A stretch of DNA of 64,000 bases from an uncultured Rikenellaceae bacterium (GTDB lineage Bacteria; Bacteroidota; Bacteroidia; Bacteroidales; VadinHA17): positions 29,146 to 93,145 of the forward strand of contig CAZWLP010000001.1 of the NCBI GenBank assembly GCA_964634565.1. The letters are read 5' to 3'. Of the stretch, positions 1,175 to 62,113 are shown in pieces (the first letter of the stretch is position 1; every line of letters starts with the position of its first letter). Under the pieces are notes generated by a model, which saw only the letters and a program-made list of their open reading frames with translations, was not told the DNA's origin and searched no databases. The position numbers and the translations under genes are program-made.

Positions 1175-3808
1175 CTATTTTTTAAGCTCTTCAAGTCTTT
1201 TTTCCAATACCTTAATCTTGGTCTCTGCGTCGGACTGTTTCTTTCGTTCCATAGCGACAACCTTTTCGGGGGCATTATCCACAAAACTCTTATTGTCCAG
1301 CTTCTTCATAATAGTATTTAAAAATCCCTTCTGATAATTCAGTTCAGTTTTTATTTTCTCAATCTCAGTCTCAATATCAAGCTTCTCTCCTACGGGAACA
1401 AAGTACTCGGTAGTGCCTACAATAAATGAAACAGCTCCTTCTGGTTTCTCTTCCACATAATTAAAACTGGTAATATGTCCCAGCCTCTTTATCACACTCG
1501 AAAACTGAGGCAGCTCCTCCTTTCCTGAATAAAGAAGTTCAAGATCTTCCCTGTTTGGAATATTTTTATCCTTTCTTACTGTTCTGACAGATCCGATAAT
1601 CTGTCTGGCAATATCGAAATCCTTCAGGGTGGCAACAGAAATACTTTCAACCTGTGGCTGCCTTACAAGCATAATTGATTCACTACCCTTCCTTTCCTGC
1701 AAAAGCTGCCATATTTCTTCAGTAATAAATGGCATAAAGGGATGTATCAGTCTTACCAGCCTGTCGAAGAAATTAATAGTTGCATCAAGGGTCCTCTTAT
1801 CAATAGGTCTCTGATAATCAGGCTTTACGGCTTCCAGGTACCAGCTTGAAAAATCATCCCAGAATAAACGATAAACAATCATCAGAGCATCGCTTATCCT
1901 GTAATTGTCGAAAGCCTTATTATAATCAGATATAGCCTCTGACAGCCTGTTTTCGAACCACTTTATAGCATCAATACTCCATTTAGGTTGAGCTATTGTT
2001 TTATCACATTCCCAGGTTTTAACCAGCCTGAAAGCATTCCAGATTTTATTTGCATAATTCCTGCCCTGTTCCGGTAAACCATCATCATACAGAAGATCGT
2101 TTCCTGCGGGCGAACAAAGCAGCATACCTACCCTTACTCCATCAGCACCATATTTATTTATAAGAGTAAGCGGATCCGGTGAATTACCAAGCGATTTAGA
2201 CATTTTCTTTCTCTGCTTATCACGTACCAGTCCATGCAGGTAAACATCAGAGAAGGGCTTTTCACCCCGGTACTCATATCCTGAAATAATCATTCTGGCC
2301 ACCCAGAAGAATAATATTTCAGGAGCTGTGATAAGAGCATCTGTCGGATAATAGTACTTCATATCCTCACTGTCGGGTTCGAGTATCCCATTAAAACAGG
2401 TAATTGGCCATAACCATGAAGAAAACCAGGTGTCGAGTACATCTTCATCCTGCCTCAGATCGGCAATACTTATATTACTGTCGCCACTTGCTTCCCTTGC
2501 TTTCTCTAATGCTTCACCGATTGTCTCGGCAACCACAAAATCATTCCCATTGTAAAAATAAGCCGGGATCCGGTGCCCCCACCATAGCTGGCGACTAACA
2601 CACCAGTCTCTGACATTCTCCATCCAGTGCTTATAAACATTTCTGAATTTTGAAGGATGTATCCTTACCTCATTATTCATAACCGCATCCAGCGCGGGCT
2701 TAGCCAGGTCTTCCATCTTCAGGAACCACTGCATAGATAACTTTGGCTCAATTACAGCATCAGTTCTTTCCGACCTGCCAACCTTGTTTCTGTAATTTTC
2801 TGCCTTTACCAGGGCTCCTAAGCTATTCAGCTCTTTTTCAGCCAGATCACGGGCTTCAAATCTGTCCTTCCCTATAAATAAACCTGCTTCTTCTGATAAA
2901 GTACCATCATCATTAAATATATCAATGCTGGCCAGATTATGACGAACCCCAATCTCATAATCATTAATATCGTGGGCTGGTGTTATCTTAAGACAACCTG
3001 TTCCGAATTCCATATCCACATATTCATCAAAAATTACAGGTACTTCCCTTTCTGCCATGGGAACAATAACCTTCTTCCCCCGGAGATGCTTAAAGCGTTG
3101 ATCCAGCGGATTAACACATACTGCTGTATCGCCAAGGATGGTCTCCGGTCGTGTTGTTGCTATAGTAACAAAATTTTCTTCTCCTGCTATCCTGTAATTT
3201 ACATAATAGAGCTTTGAATCCTCCTCCCGGTATACTACCTCCTCATCAGAAACAGCCGTCCTGGCCTGAGGGTCCCAATTCACCATTCTTACGCCTCTGT
3301 AAATCTTACCCTTGTTAAACAGATCAACAAAGACTCTTATCACAGACTTGTACCTTATGTCATCCATTGTAAAAAGGGTCCTGTCCCAATCGCATGATGC
3401 GCCGAGGCTTTTAAGCTGTTCAAGTATTATGCCTCCATGTTTTTCAGTCCAGTCCCATGCATGTTTAAGAAACTCTTCGCGCGACAGATCATTCTTTTCA
3501 ATCCCTTCGCTCTTAAGCTTAGCAACCACTTTGGCCTCAGTAGCTATAGAAGCATGATCTGTACCTGGCACCCAGCAAACATTCTTGCCATTCATCCTTT
3601 CTCTCCTGACCAGTACATCCTGGATAGTATTGTTAAGCATATGTCCCATATGCAATACACCGGTAACATTTGGTGGAGGAATAGTTATAACATATGGCTC
3701 CCTCTTATCAGGCTCGCTCTTAAAAATACCTCTATCCATCCACTCTTTGTACCACCTTCCTTCGGCGGCTGCAGGTTCATATTTCGAAGGAATATTCATT
3801 TTGCTCAA
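1175..3808 (-). CDS. valS: Valine--tRNA ligase
   Basis: [13 protein letters not shown] (HIGH), KMSKS, DTWFSS, C-terminal coiled coil; 877 aa. Confidence 0.98.
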
Positions 3809-5233: not shown

Positions 5234-6409
5234 TTAGTTGTACAACAGATACTTTGATCTTATATGTTTAAAGCTCCCGAGATCGTACTGCCAGCTTTCT
5301 CTTATTTCTTCAGCACTTAAGCCATCTATGATTTGCTGTTTTAGCTTATCATTGCCGGCCAGGGTATTAAAGTAGGAATTAAAGAAGTTATCCTTATCGG
5401 AGAACTTATTATATGAATCTATAAGCCAATCGAGGTTCAGTTCTTTACCGGGCACAATACCCTCTTCTATAGCATCTGAAAGATCAAGGCCGTAGCATAT
5501 CTCTCCCTCCAGTTTTGGGTGAGCTGCGCCCTTGGCCGGAGCCGGAGTAAATGTAAAATCAGATACAGGATAGTCTGGATGACCAAAAACCTGGAAAGGT
5601 GAATCTGTGCCCCGGCCGCAGGAAAATACGGTACCCTCAAAAAAACATATTGAAGGATACAGGTAAACAGAATTCTGATTCGGGAGATTTGGTGAAGGCT
5701 CAATCGGTAAAATATACTCTGTGTCGTGAGTATAATTAAGGCAATGAACAACTGTAATATCACATTTAGCTCCTCCTTCCAGCCATCCTTCAGAATTTAT
5801 CATTGTGGCATACTCACCAACGGTCATACCATGAACAACAGGTATTTGCTGCATGCCTACAAAGGAAGTAAACTCAGGGTCCAGAACAGGACCGTCGACA
5901 TAGTGCCCGTTGGGGTTGGGCCTATCCAGAATAATAAGCTTAATGCCCTGCTCAGCTGCTCTTTCCATAACATACTGAAGAGTCGAAATATAGGTATAGA
6001 AACGTGCTCCCACATCCTGTATATCGAAAATAATAATATCCAGTCCTGCCATATCTTCAGGCAGAGGCTTTCTCCTGCTTCCATATAAAGATACAATTGG
6101 TAATCCTGTCAGCCTGTCAATGTCGTTTTCGATATGCTCACCTGCATCAATATCTCCCCTGAAGCCATGTTCTGGGCTAAAGATGCGAAGCAGGTTAACA
6201 TGCAGCGACAGCAGGGTATCGACCAGGTGGCTTTGTCCAAGCACACTGGTATGATTGGCCACGATGCCAACTCTGGAATTTTGGATCATGGGCAGATATA
6301 TATCTGTCCTTTCTGCACCACATATTATTTTATTGTCTCCCCTTCCCTCGGCACACGAATTAATAAGCGGGAGGAAAATAATAAGGGATAAGATAATTTT
6401 CCGGATCAT
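5234..6409 (-). CDS. namZ: Exo-beta-N-acetylmuramidase NamZ family (DUF1343) lipoprotein
   Basis: FSPEHGFRG, FDIQDVGARFYTY, LDRPNP, HGMTVGE, PSPNLP. Start moved to ATG 6409 (MIRKII...INSC lipobox), which has a -7 box upstream. Confidence 0.85.
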   Translation of the reverse strand: MIRKIILSLIIFLPLINSCAEGRGDNKIICGAERTDIYLPMIQNSRVGIVANHTSVLGQSHLVDTLLSLHVNLLRIFSPEHGFRGDIDAGEHIENDIDRLTGLPIVSLYGSRRKPLPEDMAGLDIIIFDIQDVGARFYTYISTLQYVMERAAEQGIKLIILDRPNPNGHYVDGPVLDPEFTSFVGMQQIPVVHGMTVGEYATMINSEGWLEGGAKCDITVVHCLNYTHDTEYILPIEPSPNLPNQNSVYLYPSICFFEGTVFSCGRGTDSPFQVFGHPDYPVSDFTFTPAPAKGAAHPKLEGEICYGLDLSDAIEEGIVPGKELNLDWLIDSYNKFSDKDNFFNSYFNTLAGNDKLKQQIIDGLSAEEIRESWQYDLGSFKHIRSKYLLYN

Positions 6410-6421
6410 TGCTTTTTTTAA

Positions 6422-6429
6422 CAAATGTA
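6422..6429 (-). promoter_or_regulatory. -7 element for namZ
   Basis: Minus strand TACATTTG, 12 nt upstream of ATG 6409. Confidence 0.5.
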
Positions 6430-6521
6430 AAATAATTGTAGTGTGTAATCAAAATATCTGGCATAGCGGTAATCCTATAACTAATAATAATTTGCTACTT
6501 TTACCCTTCAAATTACAGAAA

Positions 6522-7766
6522 TTGAGAACAGGCCTGTTTATATCGCGAAGACTTATTAAAGAACAAAAAGGAAGCACTTCCTTTTCAAGGCCCATTAATA
6601 TTATAGTTATTAGCGGTATTGCCATGGGTCTTGCAGTAATGATCCTTTCAATATCAATCCTTACAGGCTTTAAGAAAGAGATTCGCGATAGGATAGCCGG
6701 TTTTTCAGGACATATCCAGATTTTAAACTTTGATTCAAATTATTCATACGAAACCGTCCCGGTATCCGGCAATCAGAAATTTATTCCTGAGCTTCAGAAT
6801 AACCCGGCAATTCAGAATATCCAGGTATTTGCAACCAAAGCCGGTATTATTAAAACTGACGATAATATTCAGGGTGTGGTACTTAAAGGCGTCGGACCGG
6901 ATTATAACTGGGATTTCTTTAAAAATAATCTCACGGAAGGATCTGTATTAAGCCTCAGCGACTCTGCAAGATCGACCGATGTACTTATTTCCCGCCAGGT
7001 TTGCAGACTGCTTAATCTGAAATTAAACGATAATTTTGCGATGTACTTCGTGCAGGATCCGCCCAGGATGCGTCGTTTTACTATTAAAGGAATCTACGAG
7101 ACCAGCGTTGAACAAATGGACAAGATTTACGTACTCTGTGATATTCGGCAAATACGAAGACTTAATGGGTGGGAGTCTGATCAGGTAAGTGGCTTTGAGG
7201 TTTTACTTAATGATTTTAATGATATAGATCTTATGACCTATGCGATAAGGGATGCAATAGGTTACAGGTTTGAGGAAGATCAGGATCAGCTGAAGGTTAC
7301 CAATATAAGGCTGAAATATCCTCAGATCTTTGATTGGCTTGGTTTCCAGGATACAAATGTTGTAACTATTCTTGTGCTGATGCTTCTGGTGGCCGGTTTT
7401 AATATGATATCGGGTCTTCTGATCCTAATACTTGAAAAAACTAATTTTATTGGTATCCTGAAGGCTGTCGGATCGAACAATGGTCTGATCAGAAAAGTGT
7501 TCTTATATCAGGCAGCCTACCTGATTGTTAATGGCCTTGCCTGGGGTAATGTTATTGGCATCGGACTTGCCTTTCTTCAGAAAAGATTCGAGCTTATATC
7601 ACTCGACCCATCCTCATACTACCTCAGCACTGTACCAATCAATTTCAATATTTTTCATATCCTGTTGCTAAATATCGGCACCATGGCAATTATCTTAGCG
7701 ATGCTGATAATACCGTCAAGACTTATTTCAAGAATTACACCCGTAAAAGCAATCAGGTTTGATTAA
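6522..7766 (+). CDS. LolC/LolE (MacB/FtsX-type) ABC transporter permease
   Basis: N-terminal L(M)RTGLFISRR, TM1 GIAMGLAVMIL, periplasmic domain, EKTNFIGILKAVG, ends PVKAIRFD. Likely TTG start at 6522; the track start at 6255 overlaps namZ. Confidence 0.85.
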   Translation: MRTGLFISRRLIKEQKGSTSFSRPINIIVISGIAMGLAVMILSISILTGFKKEIRDRIAGFSGHIQILNFDSNYSYETVPVSGNQKFIPELQNNPAIQNIQVFATKAGIIKTDDNIQGVVLKGVGPDYNWDFFKNNLTEGSVLSLSDSARSTDVLISRQVCRLLNLKLNDNFAMYFVQDPPRMRRFTIKGIYETSVEQMDKIYVLCDIRQIRRLNGWESDQVSGFEVLLNDFNDIDLMTYAIRDAIGYRFEEDQDQLKVTNIRLKYPQIFDWLGFQDTNVVTILVLMLLVAGFNMISGLLILILEKTNFIGILKAVGSNNGLIRKVFLYQAAYLIVNGLAWGNVIGIGLAFLQKRFELISLDPSSYYLSTVPINFNIFHILLLNIGTMAIILAMLIIPSRLISRITPVKAIRFD

Positions 7767-7949
7767 TTGTTAAAAAAATATTTTCAGGCTGTTTACTTCC
7801 ATTTATTCGTGTATTTGCAAAAAAATCAAAATAAATTAAGGTAAATCAACCGTCACTGCATCAAATTTTAATTTTGAGCCTGGCTCAGAATGATAACTGA
7901 ATTTGATATCTCTGTTTTCTTGAATAAATTGCCGACCAAATTATTTTCA

Positions 7950-9935
7950 ATGAAGAAGTTTAATGCCCGAAAAAATTACGAGAGTACACGTAAAGAAATT
8001 GGCTTTGTAGATCTGAACGATGCAGCTATTGAAGATTATAAGAGGATAGGGTTTAAGTCCGGACTTGAAGTACACCAGCAATTACTCACTAAGAGCAAGC
8101 TTTTCTGCAGATGTCCTGCAGGTATTTATCACAATCATGATAATTTCGATGCTGAGGTAATCAGACATATGCGACCAACACTTAGTGAACTGGGCGAATA
8201 TGACGGAACGGCTCTCATGGAGTTTAAGACCAGAAAGGAGATTATATACCGTCTGAATAACGAAAATGCCTGCACATACGAAGTTGATGATACTCCTCCT
8301 TTTCCGATCGACAAGGAAGCTCTCGATATAGCCCTTGAAATTTCTTTGCTATCAAAACTCAATATTGTAGGAGAAGTTCATATTACAAGGAAACAGTATC
8401 TCGATGGAAGTATACCAACCGGATTCCAGAGAACAGCGATACTGGGTGTGGAAGGGGAAATTGAATTAAAAAATAAGAAGGTAAGGCTGATACAGTTAAG
8501 CATCGAGGAAGATTCCTGCAGGGAAATATCTGATATAGGCCATACCCGGATCTATAAAACCGACAGACTCGGGATGCCACTTATTGAGACAGTTACCTAC
8601 CCCGATATGGAGACACCTCAGGAACTGGCTGAAGCTGCAGAATATATAAGATACCTTAATCGCAGTACAGATAAGGTCAGGACAGGTATTGGTGCCGGAC
8701 GGGAAGATGTAAATGTTAGCTGCAGGGGAGGTAGCAGGGTTGAGATTAAAGGAGTGGCCCATATTCTGTGGATCCCCAGGCTGTCGCATAACGAAAGTTT
8801 CAGGCAATATGCCCTCCTTAATATAAGGTCTGTCCTGAATTCAAGGCTTAAGAACGGATCTTCCTGGAAAATGAATTATAAAGAAATTATATTTTCAAAT
8901 ATTAACCTGCTGACGGAGAACATTAAAGGTGCCCTGGATAAAAATTACAGGGTAATGGCTGTAAACCTGCCTCTCTGCAAAGGTATACTTTCACATTTTA
9001 CACAACCCGGTCATATCTTTGCAGACGAGCTGACTGACAGGCTAAAGGTAATTGCCTGTATAGAAAAGCCAAATATGATTCATTCCGAGGAACTCAACCC
9101 TCTTGAATCCGAGAAAGAATGGTCGAAGATAAGGGAATTTCTTGAGTCGGAACCAGAAGATGCTCAGCTTGTTATATGGGGACCGGATGAAGATATTTCA
9201 ACTGCCCTCGAAACAGTGGAAGAAAGAATTCGGATGGCCTTCGAAGGAGTTCCGCTTGAGACAAGGAAATCGTTACCCGATGGGACAACGATCTTCGAAA
9301 GAGTATTACCCGGATCTGACAGGATGTACCCTGATACTGACTCACCCCCTATTCCTCTTGAAGAATCATATATTGAGAACCTTAGAAAAAACCTTCCTGA
9401 AGATATCGCTATCAGGTTCTCACAAATGAGAGATTGGAAAATACCTGAAGGAACATTTAAATATTTACTGAGTAAAAACCTTATTCCTGTAATTGAAGAT
9501 ATAGCGGAAAATACTGGCTTTACTCATAAACAGATCGGAGCCTTCCTGGGACAGAGATTCAAGAGAATTGAAGGCATAAGAAAAGGGCATAACAACTTCA
9601 GTTTTAAGATTATCTCAAACCTGTTTTACTACCTTGATAATAACGGGCTTAAGTATGAAATTGCAGAACCTATGCTGCACATACTTTATGAACATCCTAA
9701 AATGAGGTATGAGTCAATTTTAACAACACTTAATTATAAGAAACTGAGTATTGATGACCTTATTGCACCACTTGATTTTCTGTATAAGAAATTTGAGGAA
9801 GACAAAGAAATTGTTGACAATTCCAGGTTAATAAACTGGCTTATGGGACAGTTAAGAAAACAGGCAAGAGGTAATATCGACCTAAGGGACCTGTATTTAA
9901 GAGTTAAGGATTTTGCAGAGAATAAAACAAAGTAG
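7950..9935 (+). CDS. gatE: Glu-tRNA(Gln) amidotransferase subunit GatE (archaeal type)
   Basis: GFKSGLEVHQQL, KLFCRCP, DGSIPTGFQRT, LSIEEDS, DRLGMPLIE, RTGIGAGREDVNVS, RVEIKGV, an AspRS-like insertion (...IHSEEL...) and GVPLETRK..PDGTT.FERVLPG..RMYPDTD. The insertion and the GVPxETR segment distinguish GatE from GatB. Likely ATG 7950 (track: 7890). Confidence 0.93.
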   Translation: MKKFNARKNYESTRKEIGFVDLNDAAIEDYKRIGFKSGLEVHQQLLTKSKLFCRCPAGIYHNHDNFDAEVIRHMRPTLSELGEYDGTALMEFKTRKEIIYRLNNENACTYEVDDTPPFPIDKEALDIALEISLLSKLNIVGEVHITRKQYLDGSIPTGFQRTAILGVEGEIELKNKKVRLIQLSIEEDSCREISDIGHTRIYKTDRLGMPLIETVTYPDMETPQELAEAAEYIRYLNRSTDKVRTGIGAGREDVNVSCRGGSRVEIKGVAHILWIPRLSHNESFRQYALLNIRSVLNSRLKNGSSWKMNYKEIIFSNINLLTENIKGALDKNYRVMAVNLPLCKGILSHFTQPGHIFADELTDRLKVIACIEKPNMIHSEELNPLESEKEWSKIREFLESEPEDAQLVIWGPDEDISTALETVEERIRMAFEGVPLETRKSLPDGTTIFERVLPGSDRMYPDTDSPPIPLEESYIENLRKNLPEDIAIRFSQMRDWKIPEGTFKYLLSKNLIPVIEDIAENTGFTHKQIGAFLGQRFKRIEGIRKGHNNFSFKIISNLFYYLDNNGLKYEIAEPMLHILYEHPKMRYESILTTLNYKKLSIDDLIAPLDFLYKKFEEDKEIVDNSRLINWLMGQLRKQARGNIDLRDLYLRVKDFAENKTK

Positions 9936-9937
9936 AT

Positions 9938-11323
9938 ATGACTGAAGATTTTTTCCAGGGATATAAAGGAGAAGCACTTAAGACTCTTAAGAAATACCGT
10001 GTAAGGGTATGGGGACAAACCGAAATTGATACCAGCAGGGGAACCTTTACTGGCACTGTGTTGCCAAGATCAGAAAATGACGACGACCTTCATATAGTTT
10101 TAAAAATAGAAACAGGATATAATATTGGTATTGATGTCGGCACAATAATAGGGATGAAAGAAACAGGCTATCAAAAAGCCAATTATAAGATCCCGGAAAA
10201 AGAATTTCCATATTCAGACAATAAGCCGTCGATTAAACTATTTGGCACCGGTGGGACTATTGCTTCAAGACTGGATTACAGGACGGGAGCTGTTATCCCG
10301 GCATTTTCGCCCGGAGAGCTCTATGGTGCTGTTCCTGAGCTTGCAGATATTTGTAATATCGACACCGAAAAACTTTTTGCAGTATTCAGTGAAAACATGG
10401 GCCCCGAACAGTATATTACACTGGCAAAGGCTATAGGAAAGGAAATAGAAAACGGCATTGATGGAATTGTAATAGGCCATGGCACAGATACACTGCACCA
10501 TACTGCTGCTGCATTATCATTTATGGTACAGGATCCGCCGGTACCAATTATACTCGTCGGATCACAAAGATCATCAGACAGACCCTCTTCAGATGCAGCC
10601 CTAAATCTTATCCATGCCTCCTGGGCAGCATCACATGGCGATATTGCCGAAGTACTTGTCTGTATGTTCGGACCAACCAGCGACGAGTATGGCTTTCTTC
10701 ACCGAGGAACCAGAGTACGTAAGATGCATAGTTCCTACAGATCAACATTCAGAACGATTGGTGATACCCCGGTTGCAACTATTACAAAAGAAGGAATTAA
10801 GCATATAAAGAAGAATTATAATCAAAGGAGAAAAGATAAGAAAGTAACTATACTGCCATATTTCTCTGAAAAAGTAAGTATGCTATATTATTATCCTCAT
10901 ATGCAGCCTGAAATTCTGGATAATCTTGTAGATCTGGGATATAAGGGCATTATTATTGTTGGCACAGGTCTCGGACATGTGAACCGGGAACTTTACCCCG
11001 CCCTGAAAAGAGCAAAGGATAAAGGTGTTTCCGTCTTTATGACCCTGCAAACCATATGGGGTTATGTTCATATGTTTGTTTACGAAACAGGACGCGATAT
11101 GATGGCCCTGGGAGTTACTCCCCTGGGTAATATGCTTCCCGAGGTAGCATGGGTAAAACTGGGCTGGGCCATGGGCCAGACTGAAGATCAGGAGGAAATT
11201 AAAAGAATAATGTTATCACCTGTTAATCAAGAGATCACAGAACGTGAGCCCTATAATGGTTATCTGGTATACCAGGGAGGGGTGCCCGAAGTCGAAAATT
11301 TTGTCAGAAGGTTCCATAAGTAA
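9938..11323 (+). CDS. gatD: Glu-tRNA(Gln) amidotransferase subunit GatD (asparaginase-fold glutaminase)
   Basis: GatD-type N-terminal domain (GTVLPRSE...IVLKIETGYNIGI), TGGTIASRLDYRTGAV, HGTDT, GSQRSSDRPSSDA, RVRKMHSS, MLPEVAWVKLGW. Starts 2 nt after the gatE stop. Confidence 0.93.
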   Translation: MTEDFFQGYKGEALKTLKKYRVRVWGQTEIDTSRGTFTGTVLPRSENDDDLHIVLKIETGYNIGIDVGTIIGMKETGYQKANYKIPEKEFPYSDNKPSIKLFGTGGTIASRLDYRTGAVIPAFSPGELYGAVPELADICNIDTEKLFAVFSENMGPEQYITLAKAIGKEIENGIDGIVIGHGTDTLHHTAAALSFMVQDPPVPIILVGSQRSSDRPSSDAALNLIHASWAASHGDIAEVLVCMFGPTSDEYGFLHRGTRVRKMHSSYRSTFRTIGDTPVATITKEGIKHIKKNYNQRRKDKKVTILPYFSEKVSMLYYYPHMQPEILDNLVDLGYKGIIIVGTGLGHVNRELYPALKRAKDKGVSVFMTLQTIWGYVHMFVYETGRDMMALGVTPLGNMLPEVAWVKLGWAMGQTEDQEEIKRIMLSPVNQEITEREPYNGYLVYQGGVPEVENFVRRFHK

Positions 11324-42455: not shown

Positions 42456-44960
42456 ATGAGAAACTTAAAATTACTAATTGCGGCACTGGCTTTGTCGGCC
42501 ATTTCTTTGCCTCAATTTGCACAGCAAAATATTGTTAAAGACACTATTGCAGATAAGAATATTTCTGCATTTAAACAGGACCTGCCAACATTCAGCATAA
42601 CAGATTCTGATGCAGATAACAGTCTGGAATCACAAACAATAAATGGACTTTTGAGTTCTTCGTCCGATATTTTTGTTTCGACTGCTGCCTATACCTTCGG
42701 GCCGGCGAGATTCAGAATAAAAGGATACGATCAAAAATATTCGACTGTTATGATCAACGGGTTTATTGTAAACGAAGTTGAATCGGGCGGACCATACTGG
42801 TCGAACTGGGGAGGCCTTAACGATGTGATGAGAAATAATGTTGTGACAAGTAACTCTGCACCGGAAGGAACAATTTTTGAGCCTGTTGGTGGCATTACCA
42901 GGGTAATAACCAACGCTTCTGAATATAGAAAAGGGCTTAAAGCCGTATACTCACTTTCAAACCGTACCTACCGGAACAGGGTGATGCTTACCTATTCAAC
43001 TGGCTTACTTGAAAACAACTGGGCATTCACCGGGTCAGTTTCCCGCAGATGGAGCCAGGAAGGATTTGTAGACGGCACCTTTTACGATGCAAACAGTTTC
43101 TTTCTTTCTGCAGAAAAAATTATAAATAAGAAGCACAGCCTCAACTTCACAGCACTCGATGCAATGTACAAGCGGGGAGTAGGTGGCGGTTCTGTTCAGG
43201 AAGCTTACGATCTTACCGGGTCAAATTACTATAATCCCTACTGGGGATTTCAGGACGGAGGCGTAAGGAACTCACGGGTCAGATCATCAAATAAACCCTT
43301 AATCACTATTAAACATACCTGGAAGGCAGGAGAAAACACCACTATTAAAACAAGCGCCGGCTCATGGTTTGGCAGGGGAGGATATACTGCCCTTAACTGG
43401 TACGATGCCCCCGATCCACGACCCGATTACTGGAGAAATCTTCCCAGCTACTATACTCTGGAAGAAGATCAGCAGAGGATTGCTGCAGGCTGGTCTGATC
43501 CCTCTGTCAGTCAGCTTAACTGGAACCATTTCTACACCACAAACCGAAAAAACCTCTTCACAATGGAAGATGTAGACGGGGTAGCGGGCAAAACATATAC
43601 AGGTTACAGGTCGAAATATATAATTGAAGACAGGCGCAACGATATATCACAGTTTCAGTTTAATAGCAATATAAGACATGAGGCTGGAAATATAACCCTT
43701 AGCGGTGGTATATCAGCAGATATTTACCAGGGACATAACTTTAATGTTATTGAAGACCTGCTTGGAGGCGAATACTGGGTTGATATCGACCAGTTTGCTG
43801 AGCGTGATTATCCCGACGACCCCGATGCTATACAAAACGACTTAAATAATCCCAACAGGATAGTAAAAGAAGGTGATACTTACAGCCATAACTATACAGC
43901 TCACCAGAATAAGTTTGGCGGATGGGGTCTTCTGGAATATGATCTTAACAAATTTTATGGATACCTCGGAACAAGCCTCTCGACAACAAGTATCTGGAGA
44001 GAGGGACATACCAGGAAAGGATTATTCCCCGACAACTCGTTTGGAGATTCCGAGCATCTCAACTTCACAACATTCGGAATTAAGGCAGGAAGTGAAATCA
44101 GATTAAGCGGAAGACATATTGTGCAATTCAATGCCATGTATCAGGGACTTCCTCCAACATTTACTAATTCATTTGTTTCACCCAGAACCAGAAATACTGC
44201 AACACCCGGCCTGACAGCAGAAAAGCTTACCAGTATAGACGCCTCATATATAGCAAGATTACCATGGGTAACAGGGCGGTTAACAGCATATTATACGAAA
44301 TTCAGTGACCAGACAGAACTGTCGAGTTTTTATCATGACGAACTAAGGACCTTCGTTAATTATTCCGTAAGCGGCATTGATAAAGAACACTATGGAATTG
44401 AGTACGGGGCAGAGTTTAAACTTACTTCTACACTAACACTGAATACAGTAGCAGCTATCGGACAGTACATGTGGGTAAGCAACCCAAATATTCTGATAAC
44501 TCAGGATAATAACAGCGAAATACTAAGTAACGATGAGGTATGGGTTCAGTATTTCAGGGTAGATGGTACTCCCCAGACAGCTCTTGCTGCAGGTATCGAG
44601 TACAGCTCCCCGAATTATTGGTGGGCAGGAATTACAGGAAGTTTTTATGATCATATATATATAGACTTTAACCCTGTATCACGCACAAAGGATGAAAGCG
44701 GATACTATCCCAACTGGACCTCAATGCAAAAACAAAATTCGGCCTTCCTTGTTGATGCTTTTATTGGTAAATCATGGGCCGTAGACGATATGTATATTAC
44801 CCTGAGTGCTAATCTTAGTAATATTACCAATACTACAGACTTTGTTACCGGCGGATTTGAACAATACAGGTTTGATCCTTCTAACCCGGAAAGATTTCAA
44901 CCTAAGTACTACTACTATTACGGGTTTAATTATTTTATCAACTTCAGTATAAGAATGTAA
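42456..44960 (+). CDS. TonB-dependent receptor (non-SusC type)
   Basis: Signal peptide; plug with RFRIKGYD..YS.VMING and WSNWGGLND; beta-barrel; no N-terminal extension domain. Confidence 0.85.
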   Translation: MRNLKLLIAALALSAISLPQFAQQNIVKDTIADKNISAFKQDLPTFSITDSDADNSLESQTINGLLSSSSDIFVSTAAYTFGPARFRIKGYDQKYSTVMINGFIVNEVESGGPYWSNWGGLNDVMRNNVVTSNSAPEGTIFEPVGGITRVITNASEYRKGLKAVYSLSNRTYRNRVMLTYSTGLLENNWAFTGSVSRRWSQEGFVDGTFYDANSFFLSAEKIINKKHSLNFTALDAMYKRGVGGGSVQEAYDLTGSNYYNPYWGFQDGGVRNSRVRSSNKPLITIKHTWKAGENTTIKTSAGSWFGRGGYTALNWYDAPDPRPDYWRNLPSYYTLEEDQQRIAAGWSDPSVSQLNWNHFYTTNRKNLFTMEDVDGVAGKTYTGYRSKYIIEDRRNDISQFQFNSNIRHEAGNITLSGGISADIYQGHNFNVIEDLLGGEYWVDIDQFAERDYPDDPDAIQNDLNNPNRIVKEGDTYSHNYTAHQNKFGGWGLLEYDLNKFYGYLGTSLSTTSIWREGHTRKGLFPDNSFGDSEHLNFTTFGIKAGSEIRLSGRHIVQFNAMYQGLPPTFTNSFVSPRTRNTATPGLTAEKLTSIDASYIARLPWVTGRLTAYYTKFSDQTELSSFYHDELRTFVNYSVSGIDKEHYGIEYGAEFKLTSTLTLNTVAAIGQYMWVSNPNILITQDNNSEILSNDEVWVQYFRVDGTPQTALAAGIEYSSPNYWWAGITGSFYDHIYIDFNPVSRTKDESGYYPNWTSMQKQNSAFLVDAFIGKSWAVDDMYITLSANLSNITNTTDFVTGGFEQYRFDPSNPERFQPKYYYYYGFNYFINFSIRM

Positions 44961-44972
44961 GTTAAACCCACA

Positions 44973-46343
44973 ATGAATAATACCATGAAAATATCATATA
45001 AAATAGCGCTGACCCTTTTTGCAATATTTATAGCAGCTGTAGCATGTGTCGAAAAATTTGATACTCCTCCGGAAAATGTCCCCTTCGAAACCGGGACAAT
45101 AGTTAGCATCAGCCAGCTTAAAGCACTTTATGACGACGAGCTGTTAAAAGACTGGTTCGACCGCACTCCTGTAGAAATAACTGATAACTGGGCCATAAGG
45201 GGTATCGTTACCGGAAGTGATAAAAAGGACGGAAATCTCTATAAGGAAGGATATATTGAAGATGCATCTTCCGGCATACTGCTAAAATTTGAATCAACAG
45301 GCGGATTCTACCTGGGCGATTCGGTTATTATAAATGTTAAAGGTCTTTTCCTTGGAGACTATGGAGACTTTGTTCAAATGGGCGGAGTCCCTTATACAGA
45401 TGCAGGCGGAAGCCTCAGGGTCTCGGGATTCAATAAAGATAAACAGATGATAATAGTATCTGTCGGTAATGCTTCACACCCTACCCTGACTACAATAAGC
45501 GAGATAGAGTCGGGTGATTTCCTTGGCAAATTAGTAACTCTGAATGATGTTCAGTTCTCAGGTGGTGATATAGGCAAAACATACGCCGACCCCGTGTCTG
45601 ACCCTCCACAATCAATGAATCGCTACCTCGAAGATTGTGACGGCAACAGTATTATTGTAAGGAGCAGTGGATATTCGACTTTTGCAGGCGACCCCCTGCC
45701 CGAAGGTAATGGCACTATTACAGGGATTGTAACAAAATTTAATACCGACCTGCAGATAATTATAAGAGATATCAGCGAAGTGGATATGACAGGAGAGCGT
45801 TGCGCTCAGGTGCTCGGAACACTGGGATCGCCGGTGGAAACTCTGAGTGAAGATTTTGAGGGCTTTGCAGATTATGATAATATTGAAGTAGACGGATGGC
45901 AGAGTATGATAGTAAAGGGAGGAAGATACTGGATAGCACAGGAATTCGACAATAATTTATATATGCAGGCCTCAGGCCATAATTCAGGGGTTGACGAAAT
46001 GGAAACCTGGGTTATTACCCAACCCATAACTATATCTGCCCAGAAAGTTCTTACATTCAGATCGGCAATGGCTTACTGGGAGCATGACCCCGGCAATGAT
46101 CCCTTTGAACTCCTTTTTTCTACCGATTATAACGGAACAAATATAGAATCTGCTACATGGACTCCTCTCACTGCAGTCTTAGCCGACGACGACAATAGCA
46201 ACTATGAATGGGTGGCTTCGGGTGATATTAATCTCCCTGTACAGACAGGAGCATCAGGTGTTATTGCCTTTAAGTATTCGGGAAGTAATACCGAAAGTAC
46301 AAGTTTTATAATTGATGATGTTGTTGTAAGTGCAGCTAAATAA
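44973..46343 (+). CDS. DUF5689-like lipoprotein (OB-fold-like region + C-terminal beta-sandwich)
   Basis: Lipobox VAC; IRGIVT..D..GNLYK..YIED.SSGI, GKLVTLNDVQF, VRSSGYSTFA..PLPEGNGTITG; C-terminal EDFE...FIIDDV domain. Confidence 0.75.
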   Translation: MNNTMKISYKIALTLFAIFIAAVACVEKFDTPPENVPFETGTIVSISQLKALYDDELLKDWFDRTPVEITDNWAIRGIVTGSDKKDGNLYKEGYIEDASSGILLKFESTGGFYLGDSVIINVKGLFLGDYGDFVQMGGVPYTDAGGSLRVSGFNKDKQMIIVSVGNASHPTLTTISEIESGDFLGKLVTLNDVQFSGGDIGKTYADPVSDPPQSMNRYLEDCDGNSIIVRSSGYSTFAGDPLPEGNGTITGIVTKFNTDLQIIIRDISEVDMTGERCAQVLGTLGSPVETLSEDFEGFADYDNIEVDGWQSMIVKGGRYWIAQEFDNNLYMQASGHNSGVDEMETWVITQPITISAQKVLTFRSAMAYWEHDPGNDPFELLFSTDYNGTNIESATWTPLTAVLADDDNSNYEWVASGDINLPVQTGASGVIAFKYSGSNTESTSFIIDDVVVSAAK

Positions 46344-46355
46344 ACATAACTGAAA

Positions 46356-47600
46356 ATGATTAAATCTATCAAGAAAACAATAGGCCTGCTGGCAATAATA
46401 AGTATACTTACTCTCAGCGCATGCGACAGAGAGCCAATACCTCCGCCACAACCCAGGATCGAACAAATCTCAATTGCAGATCTGAAAGCTATGCACCAGG
46501 GAAGTACAGTGGTAATTGATTCGGCTGTTTTTATCCAGGGAATTGTTACCCTTACTCCCGAGAAAAACAATATTCCTGATTTTGTAGGTTATATGCAGGA
46601 CGAAACTGGCGGTATTACCTTAACAGTTGATGGCAATAATAACCTTTCAGAAGGCTCCGAGATAAAGATTTTTTGCGAAGGAATTGAGCTGTCTGATTAC
46701 AATGGACTTCTCCAATTTGGAAATATAGACCTTGGGACACAATCCGAGCTGATAAGTATCTCTGCCGACCCCATCACCCCGGTTAGTGTAACTATCCAGG
46801 ATATACTTGATGGTGAGCATATTGCTGAACTGGTTTCTATAAGTGGAGTAGAATTCTCTGATAAAGGAAGCTTCTCGGGTAGTCAGACGCTTACAAACTG
46901 CTCGGAGGAAATTGCTGTTTACACAAGATCGGATGCAACATTCTCCGGAGATATTATGCCCGAAGGAAATGGAACTTTTGTTGGGGTAGCTTCTGTATAT
47001 AACGATGCTCAGCTGCTGATGAGAGATCCTGCAGATCTGGATATGACAGGTACAAGATGTGAGCCTTTCTTTGAAGGAATCTTCCAGGAAAATTTTAGTT
47101 CGCTATCCTATTTAGATCCTGTCACCGTTATAGATGGTTGGATAAGCAGTTTGCAAGAAGGTGATAGGGAATGGGCAGGAAATAATTACCTCGAAAACAA
47201 ATACGTCCAGGCAACTGCGCATGGTTCCGGTCTTGCCAGTATGATCGCATGGATGATTACCCCTTCAATTGATCTGTCAAATTCTATAAACCCTGTATTT
47301 TCGTTTGATAGTAAGCTTGGTTATCCAAATGGTGCAACTCTGGATGTTTTTATCTCATCAGACTACGATGGCTCTGCGAATCCATGGAATTATACCTGGA
47401 CAGCTCTTAATCCAACTCTGCCAACGGAGGTCATTCCTGGCTCAAATTATTCAGACTGGTTATCGTCGGGTAATATTGATCTGTCAGCCTATAGTTCAAC
47501 CATATATATAGCATTTGTTTATACAGGTAGTGATGGAGCAAGCAAGCAAACAACAACCTGGCAGATTGATAATGTAATTATTGACGAAAGCAGTAAATGA
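46356..47600 (+). CDS. Second DUF5689-like lipoprotein, paralogue of the upstream gene
   Basis: Lipobox LSAC; IQGIVT, QDETGGI, AELVSI.GVEF, F....MPEGNGTF.G, C-terminal WQIDNV. Confidence 0.75.
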   Translation: MIKSIKKTIGLLAIISILTLSACDREPIPPPQPRIEQISIADLKAMHQGSTVVIDSAVFIQGIVTLTPEKNNIPDFVGYMQDETGGITLTVDGNNNLSEGSEIKIFCEGIELSDYNGLLQFGNIDLGTQSELISISADPITPVSVTIQDILDGEHIAELVSISGVEFSDKGSFSGSQTLTNCSEEIAVYTRSDATFSGDIMPEGNGTFVGVASVYNDAQLLMRDPADLDMTGTRCEPFFEGIFQENFSSLSYLDPVTVIDGWISSLQEGDREWAGNNYLENKYVQATAHGSGLASMIAWMITPSIDLSNSINPVFSFDSKLGYPNGATLDVFISSDYDGSANPWNYTWTALNPTLPTEVIPGSNYSDWLSSGNIDLSAYSSTIYIAFVYTGSDGASKQTTTWQIDNVIIDESSK

Positions 47601-48676
47601 ATAATATAAGGTTTATTTCAACCTTATTCCTCTCTGTTTTTATAACAGGATATCTCGGGGCCCAGGCTCCGTCAGGGTATTATAATTCAGCTGCAGGATT
47701 AACGGGTACCACGCTTCAGCAGGCACTGCATGATATTATCGACAATCATACTGTACTAAGCTATACTCCGGGTCTCTGGGATGCCGTAAAGTCAACTGAT
47801 GCCAGGGGCGATGGAACAGTCTGGGACATGTATTCCGACAATCCTTCAGGAATTAATCCTTACAATTACACCTTTGTTACCGACCAGTGCGGTAGTACAG
47901 GCTATAATTCTGAATCAGACTGTTACAACCGGGAGCACTCCTTCCCAAAAAGCTGGTTTGACGATTCATCACCGATGTATACCGACCTTAATCATATCTT
48001 TCCGACCGACGGATATGTTAACAGCAAGAGAAGCAATTATGCCTTTGGTGAAACAAACAGTCCTTCGTGGACATCTCAGAACGGAAGTAAAGTGGGACCC
48101 TCTTCTGTTTCAGGGTTTTCAGGAACAATATTTGAACCTATTGATGAATACAAAGGTGATTTTGCCAGAACACATCTTTATATGGCTGTAAGGTACTACG
48201 GTGAGGATTCTTCCTGGCCGGGAGGAGATATGACAGATGGCGCACAGCCAAAAGAATGGGCTCTGGATATGCTCCTGATATGGCATAAGGATGATCCTGT
48301 AAGTCAGAAAGAAAAAGACCGTAATAACCAGATATATAGTCTCCAGGATAATCGTAATCCATTTATCGATGATCCCTCTTTTGCAGAAAAAATCTGGAGC
48401 GCCACAGGGATAAGCAATAAGAAGATTGAAACAGACGAAGATCTGAAAATCTACCCTAACCCCGCAGGTGAAGAGCTTCGATTCACAATAAATGAAAATA
48501 TAGATTCAGAGTTAAGCATTCAGATCTGCTCCTTAACGGGATCAGTAATTAAATATCTTTCAATAAAATCCACATCCGAAAACCATATTAATATCCAATC
48601 CCTCGAAAAAGGATCATATATTTTACTTATCAGGACCGGAAATAATATCTACAGAAGTCGTTTTATTAAATTATAA
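47597..48676 (+). CDS. Endonuclease I family nuclease with T9SS type-A C-terminal sorting domain
   Basis: YNREHSFPKSW, DLNHIFP, NSKRSN, KGDFAR, RNPFID; CTD IYPNP...GSYILLI...FIK. Confidence 0.9.
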   Translation: MNNIRFISTLFLSVFITGYLGAQAPSGYYNSAAGLTGTTLQQALHDIIDNHTVLSYTPGLWDAVKSTDARGDGTVWDMYSDNPSGINPYNYTFVTDQCGSTGYNSESDCYNREHSFPKSWFDDSSPMYTDLNHIFPTDGYVNSKRSNYAFGETNSPSWTSQNGSKVGPSSVSGFSGTIFEPIDEYKGDFARTHLYMAVRYYGEDSSWPGGDMTDGAQPKEWALDMLLIWHKDDPVSQKEKDRNNQIYSLQDNRNPFIDDPSFAEKIWSATGISNKKIETDEDLKIYPNPAGEELRFTINENIDSELSIQICSLTGSVIKYLSIKSTSENHINIQSLEKGSYILLIRTGNNIYRSRFIKL

Positions 48677-48775: not shown

Positions 48776-48870
48776 CACTTCATATAAACATATCTAGAGT
48801 GATAAATATGATCTTTTTTTTATAAGGATTTTTTTCTTATTTTATGGCTCAAATCCTAAAGCTAATTACT

Positions 48871-49233
48871 ATGAAATATCTAAGTATTATATCAATTATT
48901 TTCTTGCTGGCCATTTCGTGCCAGAACAACGAATCCCAGAAGGCTGATGCCAAAGAAACTGTAGCTACTGAGCTTGAAGCTCCGGTGGATTATGTTGAGT
49001 ATAGTGTTAGTATTGAAGGCATGACCTGTACAGGATGTGAAGAGACTATTGAAGCAGGAGTTACAAAGATAGAAGGAGTAGGATCTGTTGAAGCTAATTT
49101 TACAGATGGAAAGGCCATTCTTCAATTTGATAAAAACAATATCGACACCCTGGAGGTAAAAAATGTAATTGAAGCTGCAGGTTATAAAGTTGTGTCATTT
49201 AATAAGGTTCCTGATTCTGCAATAGCAGAATAA
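48871..49233 (+). CDS. Heavy-metal-associated (HMA, MerP/CopZ-like) lipoprotein
   Basis: Lipobox AISC; GMTCTGCE metal loop; IEAAGY. Likely ATG 48871 (track: 48844). Confidence 0.88.
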   Translation: MKYLSIISIIFLLAISCQNNESQKADAKETVATELEAPVDYVEYSVSIEGMTCTGCEETIEAGVTKIEGVGSVEANFTDGKAILQFDKNNIDTLEVKNVIEAAGYKVVSFNKVPDSAIAE

Positions 49234-49257
49234 GCTCTGGAAGATATCTGATAATAC

Positions 49258-50238
49258 ATGGAAGAAGAAAAAAAGAATCAATCAAAGCGGCCAGGAGAAG
49301 AGAAAGATCCGGAGAAAAGCTCCAGACGTGATTTTATGAAATCGGTTGGCCTTGTTGGTGCGGCAGCAATAACAGGCGGAGCAGCAATATATTCAGGCTA
49401 TAAACACGAAAAGTCGAAGGGACCAAAAGAAACTGTGAGGGTACTAACCGAAGACAATCGATTGGTTGAGATACCGGTTGATCAGATTGAGGAAGTAGCC
49501 TCATCCCTTAAAGTATTACAAACCAGGGGACGTGAAGGTATAGCCGGACGCAGGTGGGTTATGGTTATCGACCTGGCAAAGTGCCGTAATGCAAGGCAGT
49601 GTGTTAACGCCTGCCAGTCGGCTCACGGACTAAGACCTTATGAGTATCATATCAATACTCTTGCAATGCAGGAGAATGAGACATCGGCTCCGTATTTTAT
49701 GCCGAAACCATGTCAGCATTGCGATAATCCACCCTGCGTAGCTGTCTGCCCTGTCGATGCCACATACAAGAGACAGGACGGGATAGTATTAATTGATAAT
49801 GAAAGATGCATTGGATGCCGCTTCTGTATTGCTGCCTGCCCCTACTCAGCCAGAATGTTTCACTGGGAACAACCAAAAGAGATTGATATAAGCGAAGATA
49901 CCGTCTACGATGTTGAACTCAATATCCCTCAAAGGAAGGGTACTGTTACAAAGTGCCTGTTCAGCGCCGACAGGGTAAGAGAGGGAAAATTGCCATATTG
50001 CGTATCTGCCTGCCCTAACGGGGTCTTTTATTTTGGTGACGAAAATGAAGATGCTGTAACTAATGGCACAACTAAAGAGACTGTTCGGCTGAGTCAGCTT
50101 CTGGAAGATAATGCAGGCTACCGTCTTATGCCTGAACTGGGAACTCAACCAAGGGTATACTACCTGCCTCCAAAGAATCGTCTTTTCGATTTTCCAGATG
50201 ATCAGGGCCCGGACAATATCGATAACAAACATGTTTAA
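49258..50238 (+). CDS. Tat-exported 4Fe-4S dicluster protein (NrfC/DmsB/QrcC-like)
   Basis: SRRDFMK twin-arginine signal; CQHCDNPPCVAVCP and CIGCRFCIAACP intact; motifs I and IV each lack one Cys; ends GTQPRVYY. Confidence 0.9.
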   Translation: MEEEKKNQSKRPGEEKDPEKSSRRDFMKSVGLVGAAAITGGAAIYSGYKHEKSKGPKETVRVLTEDNRLVEIPVDQIEEVASSLKVLQTRGREGIAGRRWVMVIDLAKCRNARQCVNACQSAHGLRPYEYHINTLAMQENETSAPYFMPKPCQHCDNPPCVAVCPVDATYKRQDGIVLIDNERCIGCRFCIAACPYSARMFHWEQPKEIDISEDTVYDVELNIPQRKGTVTKCLFSADRVREGKLPYCVSACPNGVFYFGDENEDAVTNGTTKETVRLSQLLEDNAGYRLMPELGTQPRVYYLPPKNRLFDFPDDQGPDNIDNKHV

Positions 50239-50254
50239 TTTGTGAATTTATTAT

Positions 50255-51601: not shown

Positions 51602-51616
51602 TACAAAAACCAGGCA

Positions 51617-60146: not shown

Positions 60147-60180
60147 GCAGGCTCCTATTCAGGGGCCTGCTTAATTTTTA
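60147..60180 (+). terminator. Probable terminator between the convergent DUF3575-like gene and aspS
   Basis: GCAGGCTCCT-ATTC-AGGGGCCTGC hairpin followed by TTAATTTTTA; overlaps the aspS stop codon. Confidence 0.5.
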
Positions 60181-61912: not shown

Positions 61913-61934
61913 TGCCCTGTTTTTTATATTTCTG

Positions 61935-61942
61935 CAAAGATA
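61935..61942 (-). promoter_or_regulatory. -7 element for aspS
   Basis: Minus strand TATCTTTG(CA), with a TTTG 21 nt upstream inside the heptamer tract. Confidence 0.6.
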
Positions 61943-61943
61943 G

Positions 61944-61978
61944 AAAAGATAAAAGACGAACGACAAAAGACAAAAGGC
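61944..61978. repeat. Degenerate heptamer tract (AAAAGAC-like) x5
   Basis: AAAAGAT AAAAGAC GAACGAC AAAAGAC AAAAGGC. Confidence 0.75.
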
Positions 61979-62091
61979 AAATGGAATAAAAAAGTTGAAC
62001 TGGGTTGAAAAGATTGAAAGCTAATTGAACATTATCCTGGACTTCTTCACCCCGTGCTCCATGCCCCCTGCCAATACTCAAACCTTTTTTA

Positions 62092-62099
62092 TACTTTTG
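62092..62099 (+). promoter_or_regulatory. -7 element for tadA
   Basis: TACTTTTG, 14 nt upstream of ATG 62114. Confidence 0.5.
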
Positions 62100-62113
62100 T
62101 ACAAACTACTTTA

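Follow-up and report, generated by a model that had tools for sequence, protein, structure and literature searches.

We were able to assign two adjacent genes on a Bacteroidales chromosome, gatE and gatD, to the archaeal-type GatDE family of tRNA-dependent amidotransferases, and the pair is intact. The genes are located in a stretch of 64,000 nucleotides (the window) of an uncultured Rikenellaceae bacterium (assembly GCA_964634565.1, contig CAZWLP010000001.1, positions 29,146 to 93,145). Reviews up to 2022 cite GatDE as exclusive to archaea, a restriction contradicted by the bacterial host described here and by bacterial gene contexts in several phyla. We lean, with modest confidence, toward gatE-gatD being a functional, vertically inherited operon for a heterodimeric tRNA-dependent amidotransferase that would produce Gln-tRNA(Gln) from Glu-tRNA(Gln) for translation, whereby we infer both the substrate and the use in translation.

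The two-gene operon of full-length gatE and gatD that an earlier note on this DNA had read from the sequence was recovered with both reading frames in place, the genes being co-directional and separated by a spacer of 2 nt (AT), and both products pass curated cut-offs. GatE scores 468.9 bits against NF003107 (cut-off 456), the match covering residues 29-649 and reaching model position 617 of 630, and 418.8 bits against TIGR00134 (cut-off 319.55), while GatB models reach at most 122.8 bits with GatB cut-offs of at least 315 (338 for the best-scoring GatB model). GatD scores 491.1 bits against NF003217 (cut-off 310) and 489.7 bits against TIGR02153 (cut-off 324) and comprises the Pfam domains GatD_N (PF18195), Asparaginase (PF00710) and Asparaginase_C (PF17763); its core also passes the asparaginase subfamily model TIGR00519 (376 versus a cut-off of 260.5). 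The best PDB matches are the archaeal GatDE structures, 2D6F and 1ZQ1, for GatE (E=8e-89, residues 29-523 aligning to 2D6F chain C) as well as for GatD (E=3.5e-113, residues 8-437 aligning to 2D6F chain A; best asparaginase 2e-39), those to GatB and asparaginases being far weaker. An AlphaFold2 model of GatE (predicted local distance difference test, pLDDT, 87.9; predicted template modelling score, pTM, 0.84) superimposes on GatE of 2d6f and 1zq1 with template modelling scores of 0.79-0.82 (normalised to the target), above all GatB chains. The AspRS-like insertion, noted before as absent from GatB, is present at approximately residues 300-430, aligned to 2D6F, and is folded in the model.

We reject a GatB identity of GatE, given the low scores of the GatB models, the presence of the insertion domain and the separation of the GatB outgroup, the GatE/GatB split having a bootstrap of 100 in a neighbour-joining tree of 150 sequences (622 trimmed columns, 100 bootstraps, three GatB sequences as outgroup). 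Likewise, a stand-alone type I L-asparaginase is rejected for GatD, as the GatD-specific models score higher than the asparaginase model, GatD_N is present and gatE is adjacent. A tblastn search found gatA in none of the gatDE loci examined, i.e. the window and 88 related loci, and the surroundings of the window pair hold no gatC either.

The set of known catalytic residues is complete. GatE His42, Glu186 and Glu213 align to His15, Glu157 and Glu184 of Methanothermobacter thermautotrophicus GatE, which are Mg2+ ligands essential for kinase and transamidase activity (PMC2330236), and they are invariant in 83 of 83 bacterial GatE and at least 98% conserved in the bacterial and archaeal clades. 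The catalytic GatD residues named in the earlier note are all present, with Thr107 in the TGGT motif, Thr183 and Asp184 in HGTDT and Lys262 in RKM (codon at exactly 10721-10723), aligning to T101, T177, D178 and K254 of 2D6F chain A; GatD chemistry depends on a Thr nucleophile and a Thr-Lys-Asp triad (PMC2330236), all of which are invariant in 72 of 72 bacterial GatD. Moreover, 74 columns reach a conservation of at least 93% among 90 archaeal GatE representatives, and window GatE has the identical residue in 68 of them. Compared to an 84%-identical relative, the ratio of nonsynonymous to synonymous substitution rates (dN/dS) is 0.038 for gatE and 0.020 for gatD, figures that are approximate because dS is high (~2) yet clearly far below 1, meaning strong purifying selection on both genes. 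Across relatives, identity declines in step for GatD and GatE, and the two genes are adjacent in 82 of 89 loci, four of the seven exceptions being contig ends.

A few loci deviate from this arrangement. Three contigs of Lentimicrobiaceae-type metagenome-assembled genomes (MAGs) carry an intact gatE of 656-673 aa (L044, 9109-11064; L071, 4279-6216; L076, 5070-7004) with no gatD within 10 kb downstream nor elsewhere in each locus. In a Bacteroidales MAG (L036, 11986-13934) two genes lie between gatE and gatD, encoding a 213-aa protein with a GESGSGKS P-loop-type motif and a 421-aa open reading frame (ORF). The GatE ORF of L083 (9983-12244) is 753 aa long with ~90 aa extra near the C-terminus and a 4-nt overlap with gatD, the tblastn match covering only query residues 1-583.

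The host contig is bacterial and continuous, in agreement with the earlier description of a Bacteroidota chromosome and with the check on contig continuity set beforehand. The window carries a dcw cluster that is complete, with mraZ, the mur genes, ftsA and ftsZ, together with ValRS, a bacterial-type AspRS with GAD domain, a TonB-dependent receptor, an endonuclease I sorted by the type IX secretion system (T9SS) and an MltF-like transglycosylase. An identical GatE is encoded in the same gene order by one Logan contig and by three scaffolds of ENA metagenomes (105-142 kb). This order recurs across Bacteroidales, including a 4.27 Mb chromosome and, with an 84%-identical GatE, a contig of 1.02 Mb from GCA_942492595.1. 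The G+C content (GC) is flat at ~0.40 across the locus, and the clade in which the genes fall is specific to bacteria and marked by an indel of its own. Nothing observed favours a chimeric join at 7.7-12 kb or archaeal contamination, both being refuted by the four independent assemblies, the relatives' gene order and the flat GC, which leaves such an artefact with a vanishingly small probability.

Extent and origin of the bacterial GatDE clade

The best 120 GatE relatives are 65-87% identical to window GatE, the named ones being GatE of Bacteroidales, Bacteroidia or Bacteroidota MAGs (annotated by PGAP or JGI). A search of 1.84 billion representative proteins returned one Bacteroidales-group representative at 63% GatE identity, approximately 30 representatives at 45-55% and classical archaeal GatE at 30-40%. 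The sources of the 45-55% group include candidate division KSB1, Calditrichia, Ca. Aminicenantes, Ca. Krumholzibacteria, Ca. Desulfaltia and CSSED10-310; gatD always directly follows gatE, several members are located on contigs of 1.7-6.0 Mb, and the contexts are bacterial, with sigma-54 activators, RND/OEP efflux systems, hybrid histidine kinases, Mur ligases, MraZ, RsmH and Lnt.

To count species, GTDB was scanned with one genome per species using the peptides KQYLDGSI and RHMRPTLSE, which are nearly specific for the bacterial clade (53 of 57 bacterial representatives compared to 4 of 90 and 1 of 90 archaeal ones). The scan yielded at least 597 confirmed stretches, and as 78 of 80 retrieved loci carry both peptides this corresponds to at least ~300 genomes, a lower bound for the species carrying bacterial GatDE. 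The best 80 loci are nearly all from Bacteroidales, among them two cultured carriers, i.e. Marinifilum flexuosum DSM 21950 (Marinilabiliales, Marinifilaceae) and Perlabentimonas gracilis M08_MB (Bacteroidales, Tenuifilaceae), the complete 4.27 Mb chromosome OY764960.1 and MAGs labelled Lentimicrobiaceae, Salinivirgaceae, Tenuifilaceae and Marinilabiliales. Taxon labels of MAGs are given as deposited and a few are implausible: four loci deposited as Lentisphaeria, Ignavibacteriaceae, Aminicenantes and Eubacteriales MAGs (L013, L058, L073 and L087) have a GatE inside the Bacteroidales subclade at 59-67% identity, which looks like mis-binning or mislabelling and not transfer. A plasmid collection contained no bacterial GatDE, only a haloarchaeal copy besides the GatB genes serving as outgroup; a haloarchaeal replicon of 987 kb from Natrinema thermotolerans (L094; CP031304.1) bears a GatE-like frame at ~706-708 kb, 42% identical in the cradle domain, without an annotated gene in the plasmid table and with 481 aa possibly truncated.

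In the tree, bacterial GatE forms one clade of 57 representatives (bootstrap 100) with the Bacteroidales subclade inside (bootstrap 100). Independent support for the monophyly of bacterial GatE comes from a two-residue P-N insertion in the insertion domain, present in at least 90% of bacterial sequences, with P374 in 82 of 83 bacterial loci, and a gap in 98% of archaeal ones. The sister of the bacterial clade, and its nearest labelled archaeal relative, is Heimdallarchaeota GatE with 62 of 100 bootstraps, and archaeal GatE monophyly is recovered in 5 of 100 replicates, both figures coming from a neighbour-joining tree in which deep nodes, including the archaeal ones, are poorly supported. GatD identities to the window run from 76-94% in Bacteroidales and 59-64% in other bacteria to 51% in Heimdallarchaeota and 45% in Methanothermobacter. 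Taken together, these sequence relationships point to one ancient event of acquisition by bacteria as the most likely history, after which the genes spread or were retained across phyla, with an Asgard-like archaeon probably being the donor.

Within Bacteroidales, gatE-gatD occupies a conserved position between genes for LolE-like permease, NamZ, aminotransferase and ValRS on one side and NUDIX, MltF, Porin_10 and FtsZ on the other, which indicates that the genes were inherited vertically from an early ancestor of the Bacteroidales. The LolE-like neighbour is found in 41 of 89 loci, down to ~60% GatE identity, and at the Marinifilum locus the downstream genes are kept directly after gatD. An archaea-to-bacteria event, if such it was, predates Bacteroidales. 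The earlier note had proposed an old transfer from archaea to bacteria: its age is borne out by the gene order conserved to ~60% GatE identity, including Marinifilum, but a transfer into this lineage alone is contradicted, as window GatE lies within a monophyletic bacterial clade of several phyla and at least ~300 GTDB species. The LolE-like, NamZ, DsbD_2-like, NUDIX and MltF genes are syntenic in Bacteroidales only and absent from the loci of other phyla, and we therefore treat them as ordinary chromosomal neighbours; a conserved functional neighbour gene for gatDE is rejected, none being consistently linked across phyla.

Bacterial GatDE might instead be a vertical relic of an enzyme of LUCA (last universal common ancestor), lost from most bacteria, as reviews propose that LUCA had both GatDE and GatCAB (PMC9499178) and the bacterial clade is monophyletic, multi-phylum and deep, with a mean within-clade distance of 0.98 versus 1.11 within archaea; the weak support of the deep archaeal nodes leaves room for this explanation. 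We consider it improbable, since the GatB-rooted tree nests the bacterial clade in archaeal diversity next to Heimdallarchaeota and recovers the archaeal monophyly expected of such a relic in only 5 of 100 replicates, the order of GatD identities agrees in placing Heimdallarchaeota above Methanothermobacter, and those members that carry labels represent a restricted range of bacterial phyla, several being of the Fibrobacteres-Chlorobi-Bacteroidetes (FCB) group.

Recognition elements of GatE and the likely substrate

The differences between window GatE and archaeal GatE fall, by alignment, on elements that published work ties to the recognition of tRNA and partner proteins. In S. aureus GatB the 3-10 turn K183-M184-E185-E186 reads the U1-A72 pair, while GatE has a short conserved basic loop in that place, beside A1-U72 (PMC2811023). 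This loop is V-K-R-G in archaeal GatE, with Arg in 97% of 90 representatives, and V-R-T-G in the window as in all 15 Bacteroidales representatives; Thr at the position of residue 245 is found in 73 of 83 loci, other bacteria having Arg in 52% and Thr in 33%. At residue 234, where archaea have Gly in 100%, Bacteroidales share Arg with S. aureus GatB. The insertion domain of archaeal GatE forms a docking pocket for non-discriminating GluRS (PMC2943598), and its motif G-x-x-H-x-D-E-L, 93-97% conserved in archaea, is replaced in bacteria by C-[IL]-x-x-P-N-x-x-H-S-[DE]. The predicted C-terminal tail, covered by the NF003107 alignment and folded into confident helices in the AlphaFold2 model, bears a motif linked to the D-loop and to Gln/Asn discrimination (PMC2811023), which reads LMG..M...RG..DG in archaea, the near-archaeal G..M...RGR..G in other bacteria and W.MG.L...A.GN..L in Bacteroidales. 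This change matches the loss of Pfam GatB_Yqey detection in the Bacteroidales group, PF02637 being undetected in window GatE and kept by most bacterial GatE of other phyla.

This argument combines alignment columns with published roles. The altered tRNA recognition considered in the earlier note fits these data: relative to archaeal GatE, changes are seen in the insertion-domain motif, in the tail motif and in the loop corresponding to the 3-10 turn, and we infer that the remodelled elements may represent an adaptation to bacterial tRNA(Gln) (U1-A72) and bacterial GluRS. If the enzyme works on tRNA(Gln), it must handle a U1-A72 tRNA and a bacterial GluRS, and the elements implicated in these contacts are those that have changed.

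Amidation of Glu-tRNA(Gln) for translation appears the most likely role because the predicted catalytic and tRNA-binding apparatus is whole, because the two genes form a self-contained unit and because remodelling has affected the very elements expected to change in an enzyme serving U1-A72 tRNA(Gln) and a bacterial GluRS. By analogy with the archaeal enzyme, GatE would bind mis-acylated Glu-tRNA(Gln) and phosphorylate the side-chain carboxylate with ATP/Mg2+ using His42, Glu186 and Glu213, GatD would hydrolyse Gln or Asn using Thr107 and Thr183-Asp184-Lys262, and the ammonia would reach GatE via an intramolecular tunnel, yielding Gln-tRNA(Gln) for translation. The lack of any gene consistently linked across phyla is as expected of a self-contained housekeeping enzyme, and the retained insertion domain and what appears to be a retained tRNA-binding tail speak against a role independent of tRNA.

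Several observations weigh against this assignment. In Bacteroidales GatE the archaeal Arg beside the first base pair is lost, and a Bacteroidales-specific change affects the tail motif linked to the rejection of Asp-tRNA(Asn), so that the tRNA substrate may differ from the archaeal one. Used as tblastn queries on the window and the 88 related loci (1.45 Mb), E. coli GlnRS and GluRS and the GatA and GatB proteins of S. aureus, Legionella and E. faecalis revealed neither glnS nor gltX nor gatA/gatB, only gatE itself being matched, and ARAGORN, applied to the loci only, found no tRNA-Gln or tRNA-Glu in the window or the related loci. The six Bacteroidales entries taken from Table S1 of a 2014 survey (PMC4206432; column order deduced with B. 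subtilis and B. bacteriovorus as guides), namely Bacteroides, Barnesiella, Paludibacter, Parabacteroides, Alistipes and 'Bacteroidales bacterium CF', are all positive for GlnRS and AsnRS and negative for GatCAB, so that redundancy of GatDE with GlnRS is a serious possibility. The same table lists the flavobacterial genus Owenweeksia as GlnRS-negative and GatCAB-positive, so that the phylum is, on these entries, not uniform and GatDE carriers could go either way.

According to a more far-reaching proposal, which we put forward tentatively and with clearly less confidence than the amidation of Glu-tRNA(Gln) as such, the carriers, i.e. GatDE-carrying Bacteroidales plus KSB1, Calditrichota, Aminicenantes and similar lineages, would have neither GlnRS nor GatCAB, and GatDE, acquired once from an Asgard-like archaeon, long inherited and retuned to U1-A72 tRNA(Gln) and bacterial GluRS, would be their essential sole source of Gln-tRNA(Gln). 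If the carriers have GlnRS, a role on Asp-tRNA(Asn) or a dual role becomes attractive, given the shared U1-A72 pair and the Bacteroidales changes in elements of Gln/Asn discrimination. GatDE in GlnRS-bearing Bacteroidales would then apply the same chemistry to Asp-tRNA(Asn), alone or together with Glu-tRNA(Gln), and stand in for the GatCAB of those bacteria in which an amidotransferase is retained to make asparagine on tRNA. In archaea, GatDE discriminates against Asp-tRNA(Asn) via the first base pair, D-loop positions 19/20 and the tail motif (PMC2330236; PMC2811023), bacterial tRNA(Asn) and tRNA(Gln) are both U1-A72 (PMC4206432; PMC2330236), and the changes in Bacteroidales concern the tail motif and the loop at the first base pair, where Thr has replaced Arg. 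The survey entries for Bacteroidales with GlnRS and AsnRS and without GatCAB, as far as they extend, point in the same direction, and 68 bacterial genera retain an amidotransferase despite having both synthetases (PMC4206432). However, the GatE insertion domain, predicted to clash with class II non-discriminating AspRS (PMC2943598), is retained and there is no known biochemical precedent for an Asp-specific GatDE; in our view this substrate is rather unlikely.

Least plausible among the functional alternatives is an enzyme repurposed outside of translation, either as a regulated asparaginase/glutaminase or as an amidotransferase acting on another carboxylate. Recognition elements unlike those of archaeal GatE and the three Lentimicrobiaceae-type loci with gatE and no gatD within 10 kb would be compatible with it. 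All kinase and glutaminase catalytic residues and the insertion domain are kept, however, as is the predicted tRNA-binding tail, with dN/dS of 0.02-0.04, no metabolic neighbour is conserved across phyla, and archaeal GatD is inactive unless Glu-tRNA(Gln) is bound to GatE (PMC2330236), so that we judge repurposing to be quite improbable.

The gatE-gatD locus and the remainder of the window

The coordinates of both genes and of their elements are summarised below. For gatE, an alternative in-frame ATG at 7890 would give 681 aa; we favour the ATG at 7950 because homologues are 657-665 aa long.

Table 1. Features of the gatE-gatD locus in window coordinates.
Feature	Position	Strand	Description
gatE	7950..9935	+	661 aa plus stop; ATG 7950, TAG 9933-9935; predicted tRNA-dependent kinase/transamidase subunit
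GatE catalytic pocket	8073..8588	+	His42 (8073-8075), Glu186 (8505-8507), Glu213 (8586-8588); by alignment to 2D6F
Loop R244-T245-G246-I247	8679..8690	+	aligns to S. aureus GatB 3-10 turn K183-E186
GatE-specific AspRS-like (GAD-like) insertion domain	8847..9239	+	~residues 300-430; aligns to 2D6F; GatB gapped there
P374-N375 insertion	9069-9074	+	bacterial-clade two-residue insertion inside the GatE insertion domain
GatE C-terminal helical/YqeY-like tail	9627..9932	+	~residues 560-661; motif W-L-M-G-Q-L-R-K-Q-A-R-G-N-I-D-L
gatD	9938..11323	+	461 aa plus stop; ATG 9938, TAA 11321-11323; predicted glutaminase/asparaginase-type ammonia donor subunit
GatD N-terminal domain	~10022-10138	+	Pfam GatD_N
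GatD catalytic residues	10256..10723	+	Thr107 (10256-10258), Thr183-Asp184 (10484-10489), Lys262 (10721-10723, codon AAG)

The genes flanking the pair, encoding the LolE-like permease, NamZ, NUDIX, MltF and Porin_10 proteins and the dcw cluster, are all ordinary Bacteroidota genes, as described before. The ORF of the LolE-like permease (6255-7766, plus strand, 503 aa) overlaps the NamZ gene (5234-6424, minus strand) by ~170 nt; as gene calls in identical or related contigs vary between 380, 414 and 492 aa, its true start is probably well downstream of 6255. Scans for sigma-70 promoters and terminators, ill-suited to Bacteroidota promoters, gave sites no more numerous than in shuffled sequence. 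Just outside the window start, ~8 kb upstream of gatE, lies a glutamine synthetase gene (Gln-synt_N/C; L001, 265-1770), which is found upstream of ValRS in the source organism and the 84% relative (L005) and is not part of the wider conserved neighbourhood.

Further genes with a link to tRNA share the window, namely ValRS (1175-3808, minus strand), the bacterial-type AspRS with GAD insertion (60155-61966, minus strand) and a TadA-like tRNA adenosine deaminase (62054-62569, plus strand), the latter recognised by eye. On the plus strand at 42456-48676, co-directional genes encode a TonB-dependent receptor-like protein (834 aa), two lipoprotein-like ORFs, the first being a DUF5689/DUF5017 protein, and the T9SS-sorted endonuclease I; this may be a locus for scavenging extracellular DNA or nucleotides. 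At 48844-52516 (plus strand) a small lipoprotein with a C-x-x-C motif resembling, by eye only, heavy-metal-binding domains is followed by an NrfC-like 4Fe-4S protein, an NrfD-family membrane protein and a cytochrome c, which looks like a quinol-linked redox module.

Significance and comparison with known systems

The GatDE family is known and its genes are already named by annotation pipelines, PGAP and JGI assigning GatE names to relatives as anticipated in the earlier note; what is new is a bacterial lineage with its own signature. As that note had also supposed, no functional or descriptive study and no paper on bacterial GatDE was found in the open-access literature, a report elsewhere being possible. 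Co-evolution of GatDE with archaeal tRNA(Gln) (A1-U72) has been invoked to explain why archaea never gained GlnRS and in the debate on the amidotransferase of LUCA. A bacterial GatDE clade that is monophyletic, strongly constrained and present in hundreds of species provides a natural experiment on GatDE/tRNA(Gln) co-evolution and on these ideas about LUCA. If GatDE is indeed the sole source of Gln-tRNA(Gln) in its carriers, it would constitute a third bacterial solution for glutamine decoding. With two cultured carriers available, the substrate, the essentiality and the effect of the Arg-to-Thr exchange are directly testable. In addition, the presence of GatDE can no longer be used as an archaeal marker in metagenome binning and contamination checks.

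Compared to archaeal GatDE (Methanothermobacter thermautotrophicus, 2D6F; Pyrococcus abyssi, 1ZQ1), the window pair has the same two subunits and the same domain order, with GatD composed of the N-terminal domain and the asparaginase N and C domains and GatE of the cradle, AspRS-like insertion, helical and putative tail domains, and it matches the GatE His/Glu/Glu and the GatD Thr and Thr-Asp-Lys residues. It differs by its bacterial host, by identities of only 34-36% (GatE) and 45% (GatD), and by having Thr for the loop Arg, Arg234 for Gly, the P-N insertion for G-x-x-H-x-D-E-L and a diverged tail motif. GatDE of Heimdallarchaeota (Asgard; P0392/TET29438.1, locus L096) is closer, with 39% (GatE) and 51% (GatD) identity to the window. 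Its GatE nevertheless retains the archaeal VKRG loop, the GILHTDEL motif and the LMG..M...RG..DG tail and is without the P-N insertion; its gatD and gatE (L096, 5939-9488) are adjacent but divergent in an archaeal context, whereas those of the bacterial clade are co-directional and often overlapping or nearly touching.

Bacterial GatCAB (S. aureus, 3IP4) shares the same three-step chemistry, a GatB cradle and tail homologous to GatE and the use of U1-A72 tRNAs (PMC2811023). In contrast to GatE, GatB is without the insertion domain, has the 3-10 turn (K-M-E-E) and a Lys-rich tail motif, and partners with the amidase GatA and with GatC instead of an asparaginase-type GatD. The other bacterial GatDE (KSB1, Calditrichia, Aminicenantes, Krumholzibacteria, CSSED10-310 and Ca. 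Desulfaltia) belong to the same clade with 40-55% GatE identity to the window, share the gatE-gatD operon and the P-N insertion and have likewise lost the archaeal insertion motif. They differ from the window in their near-archaeal tail, a detectable Pfam GatB_Yqey domain and the loop Arg kept in approximately half of them; judged by these features, the Bacteroidales GatE subclade is more derived than other bacterial GatE.

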